A stretch of DNA of 64,000 nucleotides from Candidatus Aenigmatarchaeota archaeon (GTDB taxonomy: Archaea; Aenigmatarchaeota; Aenigmatarchaeia; CG10238-14; SCSR01). A program made the position numbers and the translations under genes. The notes beneath the pieces were generated by a model that worked only from the letters and a program-made list of their open reading frames with translations, did no database searches and was not told where the DNA came from. Numbering within the stretch: the first letter of the stretch is position 1; every line of letters begins with the position of its first letter. This document shows positions 3,745-15,628 of this stretch, one piece after another. Location of the stretch: positions 32,001 through 96,000 of the forward strand of contig JAWCSL010000001.1 in the NCBI GenBank assembly GCA_039090665.1. Direction: 5' to 3'.

Positions 3745-3851
3745 GCTGGCGTGGATTAGCCTGGCTAAATCGCGGCGCTCATAGCATCTATGAGCTTTGA
3801 TAAAGGATGAAAGAAACGCCGAGATCGCGGGTTCAAATCCCGCCGCCAGCA
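3745..3851 (+). tRNA. tRNA-Met(CAT), elongator type, with 32-nt intron at 37/38 (3784-3815)
   Basis: Acceptor GCTGGCG/CGCCAGC, anticodon stem CGGCG/CGCCG, CAT at 3780-3782, T-loop GTTCAAATC; G1-C72 rather than initiator A1-U72; splice motif is relaxed, not a strict BHB. Confidence 0.9.
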
Positions 3852-6704: not shown

Positions 6705-7603
6705 ACTGAGTTATATTATTTATTTGCTCATGGGTCTTGGCGTTGGGCTTTTGATCAAGTCAAACAAGACATGAGATGAAATAGCCTATTCTGACTCATG
6801 AGATATTGGCCTGAAGTGAAAGAGCTTCAGGTAGGTTGATTGGTGAAACCTAGAGGTAGGGCCCGCCAATTCTGGTTGATCCCGCCAGAGGCCACTGCTA
6901 TCCGGCTTCGACTAAGCCATGCGAGTCGAGAGGGGAAAGCCCTCGGCGCACTGCTCCGTAATACACAGTCAACCTACCCTTAGCTGGGGGATAATCCCGG
7001 GAAACTGGGGCTAATACCCCATAGGTGCTAGGTACTGGAAGGTCCTAGCGCCGAAAGCTCCGGCGGCTAAGGATGGGACTGTGGCCTATCAGCTTGTTGT
7101 GGAGGTAAAGGCTCCACAAGGCGATAACGGGTACGGGCTATGGAAGTAGGAGCCCGGAGATGGACTCTGAGACATGAGTCCAGGTACTACGGTACGCAGC
7201 AGGCGCGAAAACTTCTCAATGCTCGCAAGAGCGAAGAGGGAAGCCGGAGTGCCCTTGCTCTGCAAGGGCTTTTGCGGTCTGAAAACGGGACCGCGAATAA
7301 GGGGTGGGTAAGACGGGTGCCAGCCGCCGCGGTAATACCCGCGCCCCGAGTGGTGGCCACGATTATTGGGCCTAAAGCGTCCGTAGCCGGTCTGGTAAGT
7401 CCTCAGTGAAATCCTCTAGCAAACTAGAGGGCTTGCTGGGGATACTGCCAGACTTGAGACTGGGAGGGGGCAGGGGTACTCCCAGGGTAGGGGTGAAATC
7501 CTGTAATCCTGGGGGGACCACCTGTGGCGAAGGCGCCTGCCTGGAACAGGTCTGACGGTGAGGGACGAAAGCTAGGGGAGCGATCGGGATTAGATACCCC
7601 GGT

Positions 7604-7682
7604 ACACGAGGTTGGGTATCTTCTGATTTAAAGATGAAGAAAAATCCCAACTCAAGCTAGGATTTCCTAACTCGTGCGGGAA
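7604..7682 (+). ncRNA. 16S BHB intron 1 (79 nt, after ~U801), D'/C' guide-like
   Basis: CCCG/CGGG helix, GTA and AAA bulges; removal restores CCCCGGTAGTCC. Confidence 0.92.
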
Positions 7683-8082
7683 AGTCCTAGCCGTAAACGA
7701 TGCCCGCTTGGTGTTGCAAGCTTCTCGGGAGCTTGCAGTGCCGAAGCGTAGGTGTTAAGCGGGCCGCCTGGGGAGTACGCCCGCAAGGGTGAAACTTAAG
7801 GGAATTGGCGGGGGAGCACACAAGGGGTGGGCGTTGCGGTTCAATTGGATTCAACGCCGGAAATCTTACCAGGGCCGACGGCAGGATGAAGGTCAGTCTG
7901 AAGGGCTTACCAGACGAGCCGAGAGGTGGTGCATGGCCATCGTCAGCTCGTACCGTGAGGCGTGCGCTTAAGTGCGTTAACGAGCGAGACCCACACCCCA
8001 TGTTGCTAACTGCTTCTCCGGAAGCAGTGCACTCATGGGGGACCGCTGGCGATAAGCCAGAGGAAGGAGTGGGCGACGGTAG

Positions 8083-8170
8083 ACAGGTAAAAGGCTCAAG
8101 ACCGATTCATGTGAAAAAAAGATGAGCATGAATATCGCCCAGAGCCGTACATGTCTTTTACCTGACCGAA
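8083..8170 (+). ncRNA. 16S BHB intron 2 (88 nt, after ~1197), H/ACA-like fold
   Basis: CGGT/ACCG helix, AGA and AAG bulges; removal restores GACGGTAGGTCCGTATG. Confidence 0.92.
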
Positions 8171-8451
8171 GTCCGTATGCCCCGAATGCCCTGGGCCACA
8201 CGCGACGCACAATGCGCGCCACAATGGGATGCGACCCCGAAAGGGGAAGCAAAGCCCCTAAAAGCGCGCTCAGTTCGGATCGAGGGCTGTAACTCGTCCT
8301 CGTGAAGCTGGAATCCCTAGTAAGCGAACGTCATCATCGTTCGCTGAATACGTCCCTGCTCCTTGCACACACTGCCCGTCAAGCCAATCGAGCGGAACTC
8401 CATCGAGGCTTGCGATGAGCAAGTCGAGTTGGAGTTCTGTGAGAGGGGCTA

Positions 8452-8557
8452 ATCTTGGGGGTCCAGAAAAAAATAATATGAAAGAATTGGCTTGACTCTG
8501 ATGTGATGATGAGATGGAGGTGAGTTGATTGCTTGTATGGACCTCCCAAGAGCCTAA
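8452..8557 (+). ncRNA. 16S BHB intron 3 (106 nt, between A1492 and A1493) containing a four-box C/D sRNA
   Basis: GGGC/GCCT helix, TAA and AAA bulges; removal restores GGGGCTAAGTCG. Confidence 0.92.
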
Positions 8558-8832
8558 AGTCGCCACAAGGTAGCCGTACGGGAACGTGCGGCTGGATCAC
8601 CTCCTTACGTGCAACCCTACCTCAGGCACCATAAACAACCCTACCTGAAAGAATTTTCCTTTTTATCAGTACCAAAGTAAAAAAAATTAAGCTCGAATCT
8701 TTACCATTATCCTCAAATTTTTCAATTCTTTTCTTAAACTGTTTTCAAAAAGCTTGTGTTAACTAAAAACTAAAATAAATGAGAGAAAAATAGCTACCGA
8801 GCTTATAAAATAATAAAAATTGGGAAACCATT

Positions 8833-10851
8833 TCAAGCAAGAATAGCATATCTAGCGATCAAAGAAGCAAAGACAGAAGCTGTTAAAGACATGACTGTTA
8901 TCATTGTGTTCAAACTTGGTCCTGCTGTGTCCTTGAAAGGATCACCAACAGTATCACCAACAACAGCAGCCTTATGAGCTTCTGAACCTTTTCCACCAAA
9001 AGCCCCTTCTTCTATCAGCTTCTTAGCATTGTCCCAAGCTCCACCAGAATTTGCCATGAAAAGAGCAAAAATTATTCCTGTGATTATACTTCCTGCTAAA
9101 AAGCCCGCTAAAGCCTCTTTTCCCAAAATGAAGCCAACAAGCAAAGGTGCAGCTATAGCAAGCAAACAAGGAAGCATAAGCTCTCTTAAAGCACCTTTAG
9201 TTGCTATGTCCACGCATTTGGCATAATCAGGTTTAGCTTTTCCTTTCATCAATCCAGGAATTTCTTTAAATTGCCTTCTCACTTCTTCTATCATACGAAA
9301 AGCATTTCTCCCTACTGCCAAAATCAATAAAGCCGAAATCACAGGAGGCATCATGCTACCAATAAAAGTCCCAACTATAACCTTAGGCTCCATCAAGTTT
9401 ATTGAAAACAAACCAGTAGTCAAATCTTTCCTTATTTCAACAACTTCAGCGTAAGCCCCAAGCAAAGCCAAAACTGTTAAAGCTGCAGCACCAATCGCGA
9501 AACCTTTTGTTATTGCTTTTGTTGTATTTCCCAAAGCATCAAGTCTGTCTGTAATTTCCAAGACTTTGCCTTTCAAACCAGCTTGTTCCGCTATTCCTTT
9601 TGCATTATCGACAATTGGACCATAAGCATCAGAAGAAATTATCATTCCAACTATTGCTAACATACCCACTGCTGCTATAGCCACACCATAAAGATTACTT
9701 ACACCGAAAGCCCCTGCAAGATGCCAAGCTGCAAGCATTGCTACACAAATTCCGATGATTGAAGGTACAATGCTCAAGATTCCATAAGAAAAGCCTGAGA
9801 GGATGTTGATAGCAGCTCCTGTTTTTGCAGCTTCTGCTGTTTTTTTCACAGGAGCTTTATCGATTGATGTATAGTAGTTTGTTGTTATTCCTATAATCAT
9901 GCCAGATATAAGTCCAGCTAAAGTTGGTAAGAGAACACCAAAAGTTTGGTTTCCAAGTTCAAGAGCTTGAATCACAAAAAATGTTAAAATTGCAAAAATA
10001 AAACAAGTGGAAAAGGTTCCAACATTCAACGCAAGATTAGGGTTCTTTTTCTTGGCCAAATTGACGAAAATTAAACCAAGAAGAGAGGAAAAAATCCCAG
10101 CAGCTGCTATCAACAAAGGCAAGAAGATAAAGCTTGGAGCAATTGCTTTCCCAATTATCATGGCAGCTATGATGCTTGCTATGTAAGAATCTATCAAGTC
10201 AGCACCCATTCCTGCAACATCACCCACATTATCACCCACATTATCAGCAATAACAGCAGGATTTCTTGGGTCATCTTCAGGAATTTCCATTTCCACTTTT
10301 CCCACCAAATCAGCTCCAATATCTGCTGTTTTAGTGTAAATGCCACCACCAGCTTTTGCAAACAAAGCCAAAGCACTTGCACCAAAGCTGAAACCCAAAA
10401 CAATCTCAGGATCTTGGTAAATTTGGTATAAAATGCTTATGCCAAGCAAAGCTATGCCAACTATCATTAAACCCATGATGGCCCCACCATAAAAACCAAC
10501 AGAAAAAGCTTTTGCTAATCCTTTTCTTGCTGCATTTGTAACCCTAACATTTGTTTTAACTGCTGCCAGCATTCCAAAGTAGCTTGCTATAGCAGTGGAA
10601 AAAGAGCCAAGCAAGTAGGCTAGAGCTATGTCTGGGCTTAAGAAGAGAAAAATAAGAGTTGTCATGATGACAACGAAAATTGCCAAATAAAGATTTTGCC
10701 TCTTCAAGTAAGCTTTTGCTCCCACTTTTATCGCTTCAGAAATTTCTTCCATTTTTTTGGTTCCCGGGCTTTGTTTGCTCACATGGAAATACAAGTAACA
10801 AGCTGTGAAGATCGAAGCTAAGCCTGCGATTGTTGGGATTGAAGCAAACAT
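8833..10851 (-). CDS. hppA: Membrane-bound pyrophosphatase, probably K+-independent H+-PPase
   Basis: [35 protein letters not shown]; Lys in GNTTKA. Confidence 0.95.
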
Positions 10852-10908
10852 GAAATCACGATATATAAAAATTTTGTTCGATGATAACTTAAATTTTAAA
10901 CCATAAGA

Positions 10909-11320
10909 TTAAGTTAAGTAGTGCCTACATATTTCTAAAACTTTCCTACATTTTTCACACAAAAAATTCTCTATCCTTAAGTTAGAAGGATTGATTGACC
11001 AAAGATATTCGACCAACTCTTCGACCTTACTATAAGGATACATTAAACACTTGTATTTGTAATCTGGCTCATAATGATGAGTCAATCCGAATTTATTTTC
11101 AGCTATTTCATGTAAAAACCCGCAACTCAAAAATCTCTTCTTGATTTCTAAATATTGATTTGAAATAAAGAAAGTAGATAAATAAATTGACAAATAACTT
11201 TCTTTATCGATTTCTAATATGTTAGAAGCTGCCCAGCTCTTAAGGCCTCTCTCAAGAAAGTGATACGGAACTTCAGATCCTTCTGTGTAAAAGAATGGGC
11301 CGTAAAGTAATAATTTTCAT
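10909..11320 (-). pseudogene. Hypothetical protein (HEIAE/Cys motifs) with apparent frameshift just after the start
   Basis: Frame of the 94-aa ORF stays open upstream to ~11313; ATG at 11320 is out of frame by one A in an A-run. Confidence 0.4.
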
Positions 11321-11347
11321 TCCACACTATTAAGTTATTCTTTTTAT

Positions 11348-11593
11348 TTATGAAAGGTAAAACCAAGTCGAAAATCTCATTAAATTACAGGAGTGTTGAT
11401 CTTCATAAGTTTCTTTTGCCAATTTCAGTATTTTTTCTTTTGAATCTAATCCATATTTTCTAAGGATTTTCCAATTTTCTTCAGTTAGATTTCCAATTGA
11501 ACTTTCTGTAAGCTGAAGAAAAATTTTCTTTCCTTCTTCAGTTTCTTTGCAATTATCGGAAATTCTAATTTCCAATTGGAAAATTATTTTCAA
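11348..11593 (-). CDS. Hypothetical or fragmentary protein
   Basis: ORF with protein-like composition only. Confidence 0.25.
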   Translation of the reverse strand: MKIIFQLEIRISDNCKETEEGKKIFLQLTESSIGNLTEENWKILRKYGLDSKEKILKLAKETYEDQHSCNLMRFSTWFYLS

Positions 11594-11786
11594 GAAGAGT
11601 TTTCTTCAAAATATCTTCTAGTTCTCCATTTCTTTTTTCCACTAATATATCAAACCTTCTCATATTTTATCTGTAATATTTCTTCTGTCAAATCATTTTT
11701 TTCAAAAAATCTATTTAGAGTAAGAAATTTTAAAAAATATAAAGAATTTAGTTTAAGTTCACAATTATTTAATACCAGCTCAAAAC

Positions 11787-11858
11787 GGGCCGGTAGATCA
11801 ATGGTAGATCGCCTCGCTTGCAACGAGGAGGCTCCGGGTTCAAATCCCGGCCGGTCCA
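11787..11858 (+). tRNA. tRNA-Ala(TGC)
   Basis: GGGCCGG/CCGGTCC with G3-U70, anticodon arm CCTCG-CTTGCAA-CGAGG. Confidence 0.97.
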
Positions 11859-11972: not shown

Positions 11973-12037
11973 AGCGATGAGCTTTGTCTTTCTCTGCTGA
12001 CAAAAAAGATGAAGATGTGGACACCTTGTGAGCAAGC
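11973..12037 (+). ncRNA. Putative box C/D sRNA A in 23S leader
   Basis: ATGAGCT-guide-CTGA-linker-ATGAAGA-guide-GTGA spacing; guides match 23S only with G-U pairs. Confidence 0.55.
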
Positions 12038-12080: not shown

Positions 12081-12141
12081 GGTTGATGATAACATTTATT
12101 CGCCTGAAAAAAGATGAAGAGCGAACTGTCTATTTGAAACC
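12081..12141 (+). ncRNA. Box C/D sRNA B in 23S leader
   Basis: GGTT/AACC terminal stem, TGATGA, CTGA, ATGAAGA, TTGA; 8-bp guide to 16S 7293-7300 and 10-bp guide to 23S 15193-15202. Confidence 0.8.
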
Positions 12142-14181
12142 ATAAGATGACACTACCACAGGATCAAGGAGGTCACTAAGGCCTAACAAGCTGACCCCAC
12201 TTGGTGGATAGCTTGGCTTCGGAGCCGAAGAAGTACGTGGCAAGCTGCGATAAGCCTGGGGTAGCCGCATGCAGGCGTAGATCCCAGGATCTATGAATGC
12301 GAATCGCTGGCTTCGGCCAACTCCGAAAGGAGGGGGAACGCGCTGAATTGAAGCATCTTAGTAGGCGCAGGAAAAGAAATCAAATTGAGATGCCGTTAGT
12401 AGGGGCGACCGAAAGCGGCAGAGGGCAAACCGAACTGGTTGGCGAAGAGCCAAACAGGATGTGGAGTTGTAGGACCTGTGTCCTTCCTATCCTAGCCGAC
12501 CTGAAGTCTGCTGGAAAGCAGCGCCAAAGAGGGTGATAGCCCCGTAAGGGAAGGCTAGGAGGAAGATGGCAGGTATCCTGAGTACCATTTCCTGGATGGG
12601 AAGTGGGAAGCTGGGTGAATTAACATCCAACCCTAAATACTCCCGAAGTCCGATAGCGAACTAGTATGGTGACAGAAAGCTGAAAAGCACCGCGAAAGCG
12701 GGGTGAAAAGAGCTTGAAACCAAGTGGGGATAGTCAGACACGGCCCGGAAGGTGCTCCTTCGAATGAAATCCGAAAGGAGAGTAAGAGAAGGAGCTTACA
12801 GGGTCGTGTCGTCCGTGCGGAAACACGGGGCAGGGAGTTTGTCTCAGTGGTGAGGTTAACTTGCTTTCACAAGGTAGCCGGAGCGAAAGCGATTAGCCCG
12901 CAACTGTTCTTTATGGACAGTGAGGGGCAGGGTATGAAAGTGCCTGAAATCACTGGGACAAGACCCGAAGCCAGGCGATCTAACCCTGGGTAAGGCGAAG
13001 TCCCTCGAAAGGGGGATGGAAGCCTGCTACCGGTGCTGAGTTACAAATCGCTCGGGTGACCTGGGGTTAGTGGTGAAAAGCCTAACGAGCCTGGCGATAG
13101 CTGGTTCCTCCCCAAATGCACGTCAGTGCAGCCTGGTCGGAGGTAGGCAATGGGGTAGAGCTACTGATTGGAAGGTCAAGGACCGAAAGGTTCAGCCTTC
13201 CTGTCAAACTCCGAATCCATTGCCACCTGAGAAGACCGGAGTGAGGGTGCTGGGGTAAGCTCGGCACTCGAAAGGGGAACAACCCAGCCTAGGGTTAAGG
13301 TCCCTAAATGCTAGCTAAACGCTGAAGGGTGTCTGAACCCTCAGACAGTAGGGCTGTAGGCTTAGAAGCAGCCATCAGATAATAAGTGCGTAACAGCTTA
13401 CCTACCGAGGGTTCGGGCCCCGAAAATGGAAGGGACTAAGCTAGCTACCGATACCCTAGACCGCGAAAGCGGGGGTAGGGAGGCGTCCTGCATGGGCAGA
13501 AGCCTCTGCGTGAGCAGGGGTGGACCGTGCAGGATTGAAGATCCTGCCGAAAGTAACAGCAAAGTTAGGTGAGAATCCTAACCACCTGAAGCCTAAGGGT
13601 TTGCCAGCAATGTTGGTCAGCTGGCAGTTAGCCGGTCCTAAGGGTGCTCTTAACCGAAGCACTCGAAAGGGAAAGCCGTTAATATTCGGCTGCCATGGGG
13701 ATACGTGCGGCGACGCAAGCCAGTTTTCCGACGCTTCGGGATAGGCAGACGCAAGCTAACTGCCGAAGTGAGCGGAGTCTCTTAATGAGGAGAAGCTCAT
13801 GAAGGCAGGAATGGCTCCTCGTATGAGGAGTTCTGCTGATTCCTGGAGCCCGTGAAAAGGAAAACTGGAAGGATTCCCCATGACCGTACCGAGAACCGAC
13901 ACAGGTAGGCTTGCCGAGAAGGCAAAGGTGTGTTGGGAGAACCCAGCCTAGGGAAATCGGCAAGTTGGCCCCGTATCTTCGGTAGAAGGGGTGCCTGTTC
14001 TCTCGCAAGGGAGAGCAGGTCGCAGTGACAAGGGGGAAGCGACTGTTTAACAAAAACGCTGGAGACCGCAAGTCCGAAAGGATGTGTACGGTCTCTGATG
14101 CCTGCCCAGTGCCGGTGTGTGAAAGCCCGGTTCAACGGGAAGAAGCCCCGGCAAACGGCGGCGGTAACTCTGACCGTCGTA

Positions 14182-14231
14182 ACTCAAGGCGGTCATTTGA
14201 TTTAATGATATTCCGCTGCCTTGGGCGGCAT
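14182..14231 (+). ncRNA. 23S BHB intron 1 (50 nt, after ~A1927), D'/C' guide-like
   Basis: GTCG/CGGC helix, TAA and ATA bulges. Confidence 0.88.
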
Positions 14232-14360
14232 AAGTAGCGTAATCCCTTGCCGTTTAAATGACGGCCCGTCTGAACGGCTTAACGACTTCCCCACTGTCCT
14301 GGGCTGGGACCCAGTGAACTCGCCTTTCCGGTGAATAGGCCGGAGACCTCCTGTGGGAAA

Positions 14361-14391
<31 letters not shown>

Positions 14392-14545
14392 GTGTTGTGG
14401 TAAGGTTGTGACTGCATAGAGTAGGTAGGACTCGCTATTAGGCTGAGGCTTCGGCCGAAAGCTGAGAGGAAAGTGTAACACTACCCTTTCGCAACCTTAC
14501 CGCTAACTCGAAAGAGGACAGCACCAGATGGGCAGTTCGGCTGGG

Positions 14546-14631
14546 AGTCTAGAAGTCTAAATGAGGAGTCCCTTAAGTTATGATTTTTTATGATTAAGGG
14601 CATACGAACCGAAAGGCTTCTAGACCAGCAA
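14546..14631 (+). ncRNA. 23S BHB intron 2 (86 nt, P-loop, after ~G2252) containing a four-box C/D sRNA
   Basis: GCTG/CAGC helix, GGA and AAG bulges; removal restores GCTGGGGCGG. Confidence 0.93.
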
Positions 14632-14686
14632 GCGGTACGCCCTCGGTAAAGGATCGAGGGCGCCCAAAGGTCAGCTCATCCGGGTC

Positions 14687-14775
14687 ATGGTAGAGTCTAG
14701 TAAATGATTGGACCGTTCCAGAATGATCTTAATGATTTCTGAGGTAGCTGATGAGAATAGGCTCTACCACCCGCA
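14687..14775 (+). ncRNA. 23S BHB intron 3 (89 nt, after ~C2306) containing a four-box C/D sRNA
   Basis: CGGG/CCCG helix, TCA and CAA bulges; removal restores CGGGTCAGAAATCC. Confidence 0.92.
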
Positions 14776-14919
14776 AGAAATCCGGAGTAGAGTGTAAGCG
14801 CAAAAGCTGGCCTGACTGGATTCCGCAAAGCGAGGAATCCAGCCGCGAAAGCGTGGGCTAGCGATACTTCGGTTCCTCTTAATGGGGGCCGGAGGTATCA
14901 GAAAAGCTACCTCGGGGAT

Positions 14920-14973
14920 AAACTAGCTAGGGCTGATTAAATTATTTTTCTTCATATCTAGCTAGTTCCCTAA
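14920..14973 (+). ncRNA. 23S BHB intron 4 (54 nt, after ~U2449)
   Basis: GGGG/CCCT helix, ATA and AAA bulges, AACTAGCTAG/CTAGCTAGTT stem. Confidence 0.88.
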
Positions 14974-15001
14974 AATGGGCCCGTGGCCGGCGAAAGCCCA
15001 C

Positions 15002-15072
15002 TGCTCGAAGGGGTTTTTCGTCCCAAAGATAGCGAGCCTCGGGTTCTGAACTCGAGCCCTTCGCGCGGGTAA
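15002..15072 (+). ncRNA. 23S BHB intron 5 (71 nt, after ~2477)
   Basis: GCCC/GGGT helix, ACT and AAA bulges; removal restores AGCCCACATTGACCC. Confidence 0.9.
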
Positions 15073-15628
15073 ATTGACCCGGCGCGTTGGTGCGTCGATG
15101 TTGGCTCCCCCTCTCCTGGCCGTGCAGCAGCGGCCAAGGGTACAGGTGCCCACTGGTTAAAAGGGGACGCTAGCTGAGTTCAGAACGTCGTGAGACAGTT
15201 CGGTCGCTATCTACAGGAGGTGCTGGTCGTCTGACCGGAAGGAAGGGTTAGTACGAAAGGAACACCCTTCCGTGGCCTCTGGTCTACCGGTTGTCCATTT
15301 GGCATCGCCGGGCAGCCAAGCCATACGTGGATAAGAGCTGAATGCATCTAAGCTCGAAACCACCCGGAAAAATAGACGACCACTCTTGCTACTGGTGCGC
15401 AAGCATCGGTGGCAAGACGAAGGCCCCTGTAGACTACAGGTTTGATAGGGGAGAGGTGTAAGCCTCAAGCTTTCGAGCGAGAGGCGAGCCTGCTCCTACT
15501 AAAAGCCTGAGTTGTTAGGCCTTGATAAGCTCCTTGATCCTGTGGTAGTGTGAAAAAATTCTGATTCTCCCAAAAATATATACTAGAGTAGAGAAAACTT
15601 ATTTAATTGTCACTACATAGTAGTTATT

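Follow-up and report, generated by a model that had tools for sequence, protein, structure and literature searches.

Introduction

Among Euryarchaeota such as Haloferax and Pyrococcus, a box C/D methylation guide resides within the intron of the precursor of tryptophan transfer RNA (pre-tRNA-Trp; Clouet d'Orval et al. 2001, as cited in PMC7994747). For the locus described here, we found no other published precedent in archaea. As that system is summarized in the citing paper, the body of a bulge-helix-bulge (BHB) intron guides methylation of the transcript that hosts it, the RNA can fold for guiding or for splicing but not for both at once, and the intron amounts to a complete C/D RNA that has two guides and both motif pairs. 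We analyzed a 50-nt intron that interrupts the gene for 23S ribosomal RNA (rRNA) of a Candidatus Aenigmatarchaeota archaeon (GenBank assembly GCA_039090665.1, contig JAWCSL010000001.1, positions 32,001 to 96,000 of the forward strand; these 64,000 nt are called the window, and coordinates refer to them). On balance, this BHB intron of an Aenigmatarchaeota-type DPANN archaeon, at 14182-14231, probably has as its body a one-sided box C/D-type methylation guide, predicted to act on the neighboring helix 69 (H69). Such a guide would share with the tRNA-Trp intron its action on the host transcript, the exclusive guide and splicing forms and the predicted L7Ae-Nop5-fibrillarin enzyme, but it differs in its 23S host, its single kink-loop (K-loop), its one 8-bp guide and the plain stem that takes the place of the terminal motif.

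Introns at about this 23S site (~1927) also occur in Crenarchaeota, often with homing-endonuclease genes; they are hundreds of bases long and encode endonucleases or nothing. The intron described here shares with these the site class and BHB splicing, whereas it is only 50 nt long and carries a probable guide built on a kink-turn (K-turn). Whether noncoding RNAs arise from rRNA introns was treated as an open question in a 2013 review (PMC3608112), and the openly accessible literature that we searched yielded no report of methylation guides in archaeal rRNA introns.

Another closely related system is an engineered RNA, MMG5 (Wang, Yang and Ye 2022, PMC9670817), in which one guide is followed by one K-loop. 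As reported there, one-sided guides with a single K-turn or K-loop and L7Ae modified substrates of 8 to 11 bp at the expected site with strict specificity in vitro, and plain stems could replace C/D motifs for Nop5 binding. MMG5 was built in the laboratory and its 5' guide is free, in contrast to the intron, whose guide is sequestered in a hairpin within the pre-rRNA. The target region is a plausible one: H69 is described as a hotspot of 2'-O-methylation in hyperthermophilic archaea (PMC4644070), and Haloarcula carries a 2'-O-methylated G in H69 at E. coli position 1909 (PMC2584109).

A 50-nt intron three bases downstream of helix 69

The insert follows 23S position ~1927, three bases 3' of H69, and appears in the alignment to the Rfam model LSU_rRNA_archaea as about 52 unaligned bases beyond the model, directly after H69. 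The region was recovered from 23 related genomes, among which 15 are intronless, 7 (our own genome included) hold a homologous intron and 1 holds an unrelated 35-nt hairpin intron. The bounds 14182-14231 are fixed by the intronless relatives, which read GACCGTCGTA directly followed by AAGTAGCG at the junction, and removal of the intron restores the mature sequence, GUCGUA followed by AAGUAGCG, read in the 15 intronless relatives. The G1925/A1929 flank pointed out in the initial annotation is seen in these intronless relatives as well and is a trait of the whole lineage.

Splice sites were placed by the BHB cleavage rule, one in each of two 3-nt bulges that lie on opposite strands with a 4-bp helix between them (Table 1), and shifting the 5' site by one base within the run of A gives the same product. 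The outer exon-exon helix has a C.A mismatch at 14175/14233, and by eye only 14174-G14234 and 14173-U14235 are pairable; the structure looks like a relaxed BHB with a strong inner helix rather than the strict hBHBh' form. The intron's antisense arm, described below, was considered as the outer BHB helix and ruled out, because it competes with the central helix.

We scanned public metagenomes with a pattern whose only anchors were the H69 loop and the 3' exon, and obtained 116 stretches, 115 of which could be parsed; together with the genome loci these make up 81 unique site-1927 introns, or 82 unique combinations when flanks are included. All four pairs of the BHB central helix form in 74 of the 82, compared with at most 8 of the 82 in slid registers, and exon and intron strands covary within it (GUCG/CGGC, GUCU/GGAC, CUCU/GGAG). 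Joins across the site in metatranscriptome contigs are of low depth and contain 1 to 4 odd letters, so that relatives are their probable source; the end of one RNA contig coincides with 14181.

A separate observation concerns one relative's locus (L004, minus strand of contig C29 of genome G005), where the 23S copy has a second mini-intron of ~27 nt, inside the H69 loop after GGUA and a short way upstream of its site-1927 intron. H69 is thus interrupted twice within 15 nt there, and the predicted target UGACCGUC is intact.

Table 1. Features of the site-1927 intron and its flanks in the window
Feature	Coordinates	Strand	Remarks
Exon stretch GGCGGCGG (H69 5' strand and base)	14157..14164	+	Can pair with the intron 3' arm in the cross-paired form
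H69 of 23S rRNA	14160..14178	+	Stem GGCGGU/ACCGUC, loop AACUCUG; exon hairpin 5' of the intron; Rfam LSU_rRNA_archaea alignment; taken to be E. coli 1906-1924 by alignment to the E. coli sequence as we know it
Predicted target stretch UGACCGUC	14171..14178	+	Paired by the intron 5' arm; C14174 opposite N+5
BHB central helix, exon strand GUCG	14176..14179	+	Pairs with CGGC 14226-14229
5' bulge UA-A	14180..14182	+	5' splice site between 14181 and 14182
Mini-intron, 50 nt	14182..14231	+	Rfam insert; intronless relatives
11-bp intron stem, 5' strand (inner BHB helix)	14183..14193	+	Pairs with 14215-14225; centroid fold
Guide arm GGCGGUCA (N+9 to N+2)	14188..14195	+	Antisense to H69 loop and 3' strand
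One-base spacer U14196 (N+1)	14196	+	Between arm and UUGA
D'-like box UUGA	14197..14200	+	GA is half of the tandem sheared G.A pairs
K-loop loop UUUA	14201..14204	+	Mini C-stem here in some relatives
C'-like box AUGAUAU	14205..14211	+	G14207 and A14208 pair with A14200 and G14199
3' arm CCGCUGCC	14213..14220	+	Partner of the guide arm in the hairpin; also complementary to GGCGGCGG
BHB central helix, intron strand CGGC	14226..14229	+	Pairs with 14176-14179
3' bulge AU-A	14230..14232	+	3' splice site between 14231 and 14232

An antisense arm in guide register

The intron body is an 11-bp hairpin tipped by the K-loop UUGA...AUGAUA. Its 5' side holds the arm GGCGGTCA, which pairs over 8 bp with TGACCGTC at 14171-14178, with one G-U at 14189/14177, and is followed directly by the T, TTGA, TTTA and ATGATA (ending at 14210) that the initial annotation had listed. 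Each string and position in that annotation, which gave no coordinates for the 3' arm, was confirmed in the sequence. Counted from the TTGA box, N+5 is G14192, which lies opposite C14174; we take this base to be C1920 from the E. coli H69 sequence as we know it, so that the numbering carries that assumption. The duplex runs from N+2 to N+9 with the target opposite N+5, as expected of a guide, over 8 bp compared with the usual 10 to 12. On the 3' side, CCGCTGCC (14213-14220) can pair with the exon stretch GGCGGCGG, again over 8 bp with one G-U. The two matches amount to one fact: an arm on the 3' side that is complementary to the 5' arm necessarily looks like the H69 3' strand.

An 8-mer match with at most one G-U within 60 nt of exon on either side was found for 451 of 20,000 shuffled arms and 121 of 20,000 random 8-mers of the window, so that the arm match in this single sequence is unusual but not decisive alone, and its weight is carried by comparative data. 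These figures (~0.6 to 2%), the several registers permitted by GGC repeats and the counting of two arm matches as one coincidence are what can be said for chance complementarity, that is, for an ordinary G+C-rich hairpin intron that happens to lie beside a G+C-rich hairpin with similar low-complexity GGCGG. We regard that explanation as very improbable, given that the arm core and its spacing are conserved family-wide, that relatives hold independent canonical guides to the same nucleotide and that the same geometry recurs in two other introns of the window, as set out below.

RGUCA occurs within the first 28 bases of 43 of the 81 unique site-1927 introns, and 42 of these 43 have GA exactly 3 nt later (the exception has AA), a spacing figure that is not circular. 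Within a 41-member class picked by the string TCA-NNN-GA, the positions free of selection (-4 to -8) can pair with H69 in 41, 39, 41, 39 and 35 members, and those beyond -8 in only 14, 24, 17 and 8. Position -4 is G in all 41 members, -5 is G in 39, and -6 is a pairing C or U in all 41. When each intron is folded alone, the arm proves more conserved than the strand with which it pairs in the hairpin: position -3 is U in 42 of 42, facing G in 25 and A in 17, and position -5 is G in 40 of 42, its partner being C in 28, U in 11 and unpaired in 3. This asymmetry indicates an outside partner, since splicing requires only a helix, and the H69 3' strand CCGTC stands beside all 43 members.

The K-turn at the hairpin tip

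As judged by sequence and covariation only, 42 of 43 members keep the internal C'/D' K-motif. A second GA follows the short loop, and the three bases that precede it end in U in 39 of 42 (GAU in 18, AAU in 11, UAU in 5). A stem of 2 to 4 bp lies between the two GAs in 11 of the 42 unique members, and such mini C-stems take the forms GACA/UGUC, AAC/GUU, GAG/CUC, UC/GA closed by GCAA, and, in 7, GC/GC. As judged from these alignments, the layout of a GA on the non-bulged strand, a C-stem, a 3-nt bulge and a second GA is that of a K-turn, of which our own intron has the K-loop version.

Alternative folds and a possible order of events

For 14150-14245, the predicted energies at 37°C are -31.7 kcal/mol for the cross-paired form, -29.4 for H69 plus the intron hairpin and -25.4 for the BHB, and at 70°C they are -11.0, -8.9 and -6.7 kcal/mol, respectively. 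H69 and the intron stem are almost identical in sequence, so that a swap of partners is predicted to incur no energetic loss. The initial annotation had named arms locked in the intron stem as a ground for rejecting a guide function; by these predictions, the cross-paired form is at least as stable as the hairpin forms.

A guide of this kind would begin with a plain lower stem and an antisense arm of 8 to 9 nt; NNGA (D'-like) and AUGA (C'-like) would follow, separated by a short loop, and a return strand would complete it. We propose that, in the pre-rRNA, the near-identical stems of the intron hairpin and H69 could exchange partners at no energetic cost; the 5' arm would then pair with UGACCGUC of H69, L7Ae would bind the K-loop and recruit Nop5-fibrillarin for ribose methylation of C1920 opposite N+5, and refolding to the BHB form would permit the splicing endonuclease and RtcB to remove the intron. 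Once excised, the intron might act in trans as well. The sequences themselves show the intron, its BHB, a conserved K-turn motif, a conserved antisense arm with its register and homologous canonical guides in sister lineages; we infer the protein binding, the methyl transfer and the order of events.

The same folds can be read as an antisense and K-loop element that acts without methylation, as a folding chaperone or splicing timer for H69, the L7Ae-bound hairpin and the arm holding H69 open or delaying the BHB until a certain stage of assembly. The arm and the BHB central helix need the same GUC (14176-14178), which makes the two forms mutually exclusive, and the three conformers lie within ~6 kcal/mol of one another. 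C/D small RNAs (sRNAs) have been proposed as rRNA folding chaperones (PMC6009581), and inhibition of host-intron excision is reported for human intronic kink-loop RNAs to which 15.5K binds (bioRxiv 10.64898/2026.08.03.742641). The latter resemble our intron as compact intronic K-loop RNAs with a binder from the L7Ae family, but, as that preprint describes them, they are orphan RNAs of spliceosomal introns, in contrast to the clear antisense target found here. We think a chaperone or timer possible but not likely: it would have no need of the fixed 3-nt distance to GA, yet 42 of 43 members preserve the N+5 register, the canonical sRNAs of sister lineages use that very register, and fibrillarin and Nop5 are both encoded in the genome.

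Canonical guides to the same nucleotide in relatives

If C1920 is guided in this lineage, genomes without the intron should hold a guide elsewhere, a prediction that held. Two genomes that lack the 1927 intron carry an intron of 82 to 86 nt at another 23S site (own position ~13392), built from a C-like box, a guide containing GACGGUC, CUGA or CGGA as D' box, then a K-loop and finally a D-like box, and with N+5 on C1920. On both strands of 60 rRNA loci, an anti-H69 arm in this register is found only in the 1927 introns and these two. By our estimate, ~2 random matches are expected over the ~360 kb scanned, so that the weight lies in the location of the matches and their conservation between two genera.

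A further search pattern additionally required a C box, and the same pattern read backwards served as a control. It matched in 9 of 40 relatives (control, 1 match) and in 19 of 117 genomes of the order (control, 6 matches). In 15 of the 117 genomes the match has the consensus (A/C)ACGACGGUCA-N followed by CUGA, CGGA or CAGA as the D' box, and the other 4 are off-consensus. The guide of the 15 forms 10 Watson-Crick pairs with UGACCGUCGU and places N+5 on C1920. This guide lies variously in stand-alone genes or clusters, in one tRNA intron and in an intron at a different 23S site; one of these sRNAs scores 32.3 bits against the Pyrococcus family snoPyro_CD of Rfam, below the 45-bit cut-off. The tRNA case (locus L206, positions 1453-1579 of contig C11 of genome G025) is a 127-nt tRNA gene that Rfam matches at 61.7 bits and in which ARAGORN finds none; its intron is a C/D sRNA aimed at 23S H69, with N+5 on C1920, and not at the tRNA. 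A second guide, GUAUCUAAUCC, antisense to the 790 loop of 16S rRNA, is present in the sRNAs of two genomes.

These canonical sRNAs and the site-1927 intron have in common the GGUCA core, the one-base spacer, the D'-type box and C1920 as predicted target, and the core GGUCAUCUGAU followed by AUGAU hardly differs between the sRNA of one relative and the intron of another. In contrast to the intron, the sRNAs have a C box (AUGAUGA or AUGAAGA) with a 12-nt spacer that gives a 10-bp perfect duplex, as well as a C' box, a second guide and a D box; the intron corresponds to the middle part only, flanked by the BHB. Because the terminal motif is missing, we do not file it as a standard C/D sRNA and class it as a BHB intron that would work like, and is homologous to, a one-sided C/D guide. 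With the comparative evidence, which includes the relatives' canonical guides, the initial annotation's proposal of an anti-H69 mini-guide predicting methylation of C1920 gains support.

The comparison also raises the prospect of a decaying relic, in which the intron would descend from all or half of a C/D sRNA, captured long ago next to the site it targets, and would now be only a spliced passenger whose guide-like features are leftovers. The missing terminal motif would fit such decay, as would a guide reduced from 10 perfect pairs to 8 with a G-U, the loss of the D' GA in one member (UUAA) and the plain hairpin introns without a K-turn that occupy the same site in other lineages (38 of the 81 unique introns). 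We consider a relic unlikely, since the K-turn and its compensatory mini-stems are kept in 42 unique variants from at least 3 families while loops and outer stems diverge freely, the arm is conserved beyond the demands of splicing alone, and no canonical replacement guide was found in intron-bearing genomes in the 117-genome scan.

Taken jointly, the four kinds of host allow a tentative and rather doubtful scenario: an anti-H69 guide module mobile between hosts, guide-directed intron gain, and introns kept as carriers of guides. Within the order, its hosts would run from a stand-alone gene through a tRNA intron and a distant 23S intron to, finally, an intron three bases from the target. In the last step, the guide may have paired with H69 and been ligated into the rRNA where it was bound, which would be guide-directed intron gain.

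Host genome and enzymes

The genome (620,606 bases in 15 contigs, 90.6% complete) comes from runs labelled as hot-spring and sediment metagenomes. Profile searches found fibrillarin (289.8 bits) and Nop5 (215.3 bits) encoded side by side, the splicing endonuclease (PF01974, 94.8 bits, contig C12) and RtcB (PF01139, 547.2 bits, C14).

The same nucleotide is ribose-methylated in bacteria by TlyA (PMC7317525), as the initial annotation had noted when it suggested looking for a similar enzyme here. TlyA is a protein-only 2'-O-methyltransferase with the FtsJ fold and an S4 domain; it has in common with the predicted guide the nucleotide and the chemistry, and the parallel is one of convergence on a target nucleotide, not kinship. 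No FtsJ- or TlyA-type enzyme matched PF01728 above the cut-off in this 90.6% complete genome, the best match scoring 22.2 bits against a threshold of 24.1 and spanning only profile positions 10-82.

Within the window, an Rfam search places 16S rRNA at 6869-8605, tRNA-Ala at 11787-11858 and 23S rRNA at 12179-15522, with 16S and 23S both longer than their Rfam models. Between 16S and tRNA-Ala/23S lie ~3.2 kb (8606-11786) in which the depth of RNA contigs is near zero and that of DNA is even. Metatranscriptome contigs from two runs join the 3' end of 23S (15528) back to its 5' end (12178/12196), some of them with 17 to 18 letters in between; as expected, these joins fit a circular pre-23S processing intermediate of archaea.

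Observations that speak against a guide

Several points weigh against a methylation guide and belong together. The terminal C/D pair (RUGAUGA, CUGA) is absent at the expected places in both the linear and the circularised intron, which leaves a single K-motif, and a search of 14140-14260 with Rfam C/D families at E up to 10 gave none, only the rRNA model being matched. Older work (PMC1635284) reports that single-motif complexes are active but unspecific in vitro, and the intron duplex has 8 bp with one G-U versus 10 perfect pairs in the canonical sRNAs. At the hairpin tip, an ordinary UCAU/AUGA helix competes with the K-loop reading in our own genus; a plain helix in place of the K-loop was nonetheless rejected, because it leaves the conserved first GA and the mini C-stem variants unexplained. 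H69 is invariant in all 43 members, so that no compensatory change between arm and target is observable, and part of the conservation of the arm could reflect shared descent; selection by TCA-NNN-GA makes arm positions -1 to -3 and the spacing circular in the 41-member counts.

The distribution among genomes is likewise ambiguous. The site-1927 K-turn intron occurs in 14 of the 117 genomes (control, 0 matches) and never together with a C1920 sRNA, as checked in the 15 consensus and 4 off-consensus genomes; in a single family, 6 of 7 genomes of genus g21 have the sRNA and none of the 7 the intron, and among the 9 genomes of genus g26, 4 have the intron and none the sRNA. This non-overlap is suggestive and consistent with replacement, but it is no proof, as ~2 overlaps would be expected by chance and the relatives are not independent. 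Neither intron nor sRNA was detected in 9 genomes of our own family from which the H69 region was recovered.

A clean spliced or circular form of our own sequence was not seen in the metatranscriptome contigs, which cannot demonstrate its absence. No L7Ae gene was found in the 15 contigs by a PF01248 search; the sole match in the assembly, between rpoA'' and nusA, was rejected as L7Ae because it is L30e. Since L7Ae is strongly matched (91 to 110 bits) in all 19 relatives searched, the missing gene is probably an assembly gap.

Scans of the whole genome for C/D RNAs gave 0 matches with a strict pattern and 54 with a loose one, mostly noise. Among the latter, a near anti-H69 guide that is shifted by one base (contig C2, 19689-19740) lies inside a 491-codon open frame and was set aside as a chance match.

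Other guide-like RNAs in the window

The initial annotation had likened the site-1927 intron to the first 16S intron and the tRNA-Met intron, and the likeness is borne out by an 8-nt arm followed by 3 nt and GA, with arms antisense to the adjacent exon from N+2 to N+9. The tRNA-Met gene (CAU, 3745-3851) is matched by Rfam and missed by ARAGORN, which overlooks intron-bearing tRNAs that Rfam detects. Its intron of ~32 nt reads CUAUGAGC, then UUU, then GA...GGAUGA, and by eye the arm pairs with GCUCAUAG of the anticodon arm with N+5 on C34, a C/D target in Pyrococcus according to PMC7994747. The first 16S intron (7604-7681), of the BHB type and 78 nt long, has a canonical K-loop, CUGA...GAUGA, on a stem of UCUU/AAGA; its arm GGGUAUCU forms 8 perfect pairs with AGAUACCC of the 790 loop just upstream, N+5 falls at 7595, and several relatives hold homologues.

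Longer introns and spacers contain fuller C/D-like RNAs with 10- to 11-bp rRNA matches. Near the 3' end of 16S, a 104-nt intron (8453-8556), with homologous introns in the loci of 7 relatives, contains a full C/D-like RNA at 8478-8528, in the order AUGAAAG, guide, CUGA, UGUG, AUGAUGA, second guide, UUGA. Its D' guide matches 16S over 11 perfect pairs with N+5 at 8381, and GGAGGUGA, the D guide, lies antisense to UCACCUCC at the 3' end of 16S. The second 23S intron (14546-14631, 86 nt) is shared with only 2 other relatives' loci, and 14545 is linked directly to 14632 in RNA contigs from two runs. The intron's arm GUCCCUUAAGUU, which precedes AUGA, forms 10 perfect pairs with ACUUAAGGGA of 16S, with N+5 at 7797, and its own 3' arm copies this 16S target. 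A further 23S intron of 90 nt (14687-14776), across which an RNA contig joins 14686 to 14777, has a C/D-like RNA at 14704-14754 with one guide to 23S AGCUACCUCGG (11 bp, 1 G-U, N+5 at 14908) and another to CUGGG-GCGGU across the spliced junction of the 86-nt intron (10 bp, 2 G-U).

The 16S leader and the tRNA-Ala/23S spacer hold C/D-like RNAs at 6771-6819, 11977-12031 and 12086-12137, the last matching 23S UGGGCAGUUCG over 11 bp with 2 G-U and N+5 at 14532. In domain V, a hairpin insert of 52 to 54 nt (ACUAGCUAG...CUAGCUAGU, 14920-14973) is skipped in RNA contigs and one DNA contig, and ~71 nt (15002-15072) are skipped in one RNA run; both are further mini-introns or variable regions. The rRNA operon seems to host much of the guide set, and the tentative scenario outlined above would extend to most of its mini-introns and spacers, which appear to be guide RNAs.

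Implications

The guide reading predicts ribose methylation at C1920 of H69, at the subunit bridge, the mark that TlyA makes in bacteria. If it is correct, archaeal rRNA introns, known as carriers of homing endonucleases or as empty, can carry methylation guides, and this intron would be a naturally occurring guide that has one K-loop and, for the terminal motif, a plain stem, a form so far shown only with engineered RNAs, which would bear on the minimal box C/D enzyme and its evolution. The occurrence of the same guide in four hosts within one order would offer a testable system for guide movement and BHB intron gain. On the more doubtful scenario of a mobile guide module, introns in these reduced genomes would be kept for the guides to rRNA and tRNA modification that they carry, as an archaeal counterpart of intron-hosted small nucleolar RNAs.

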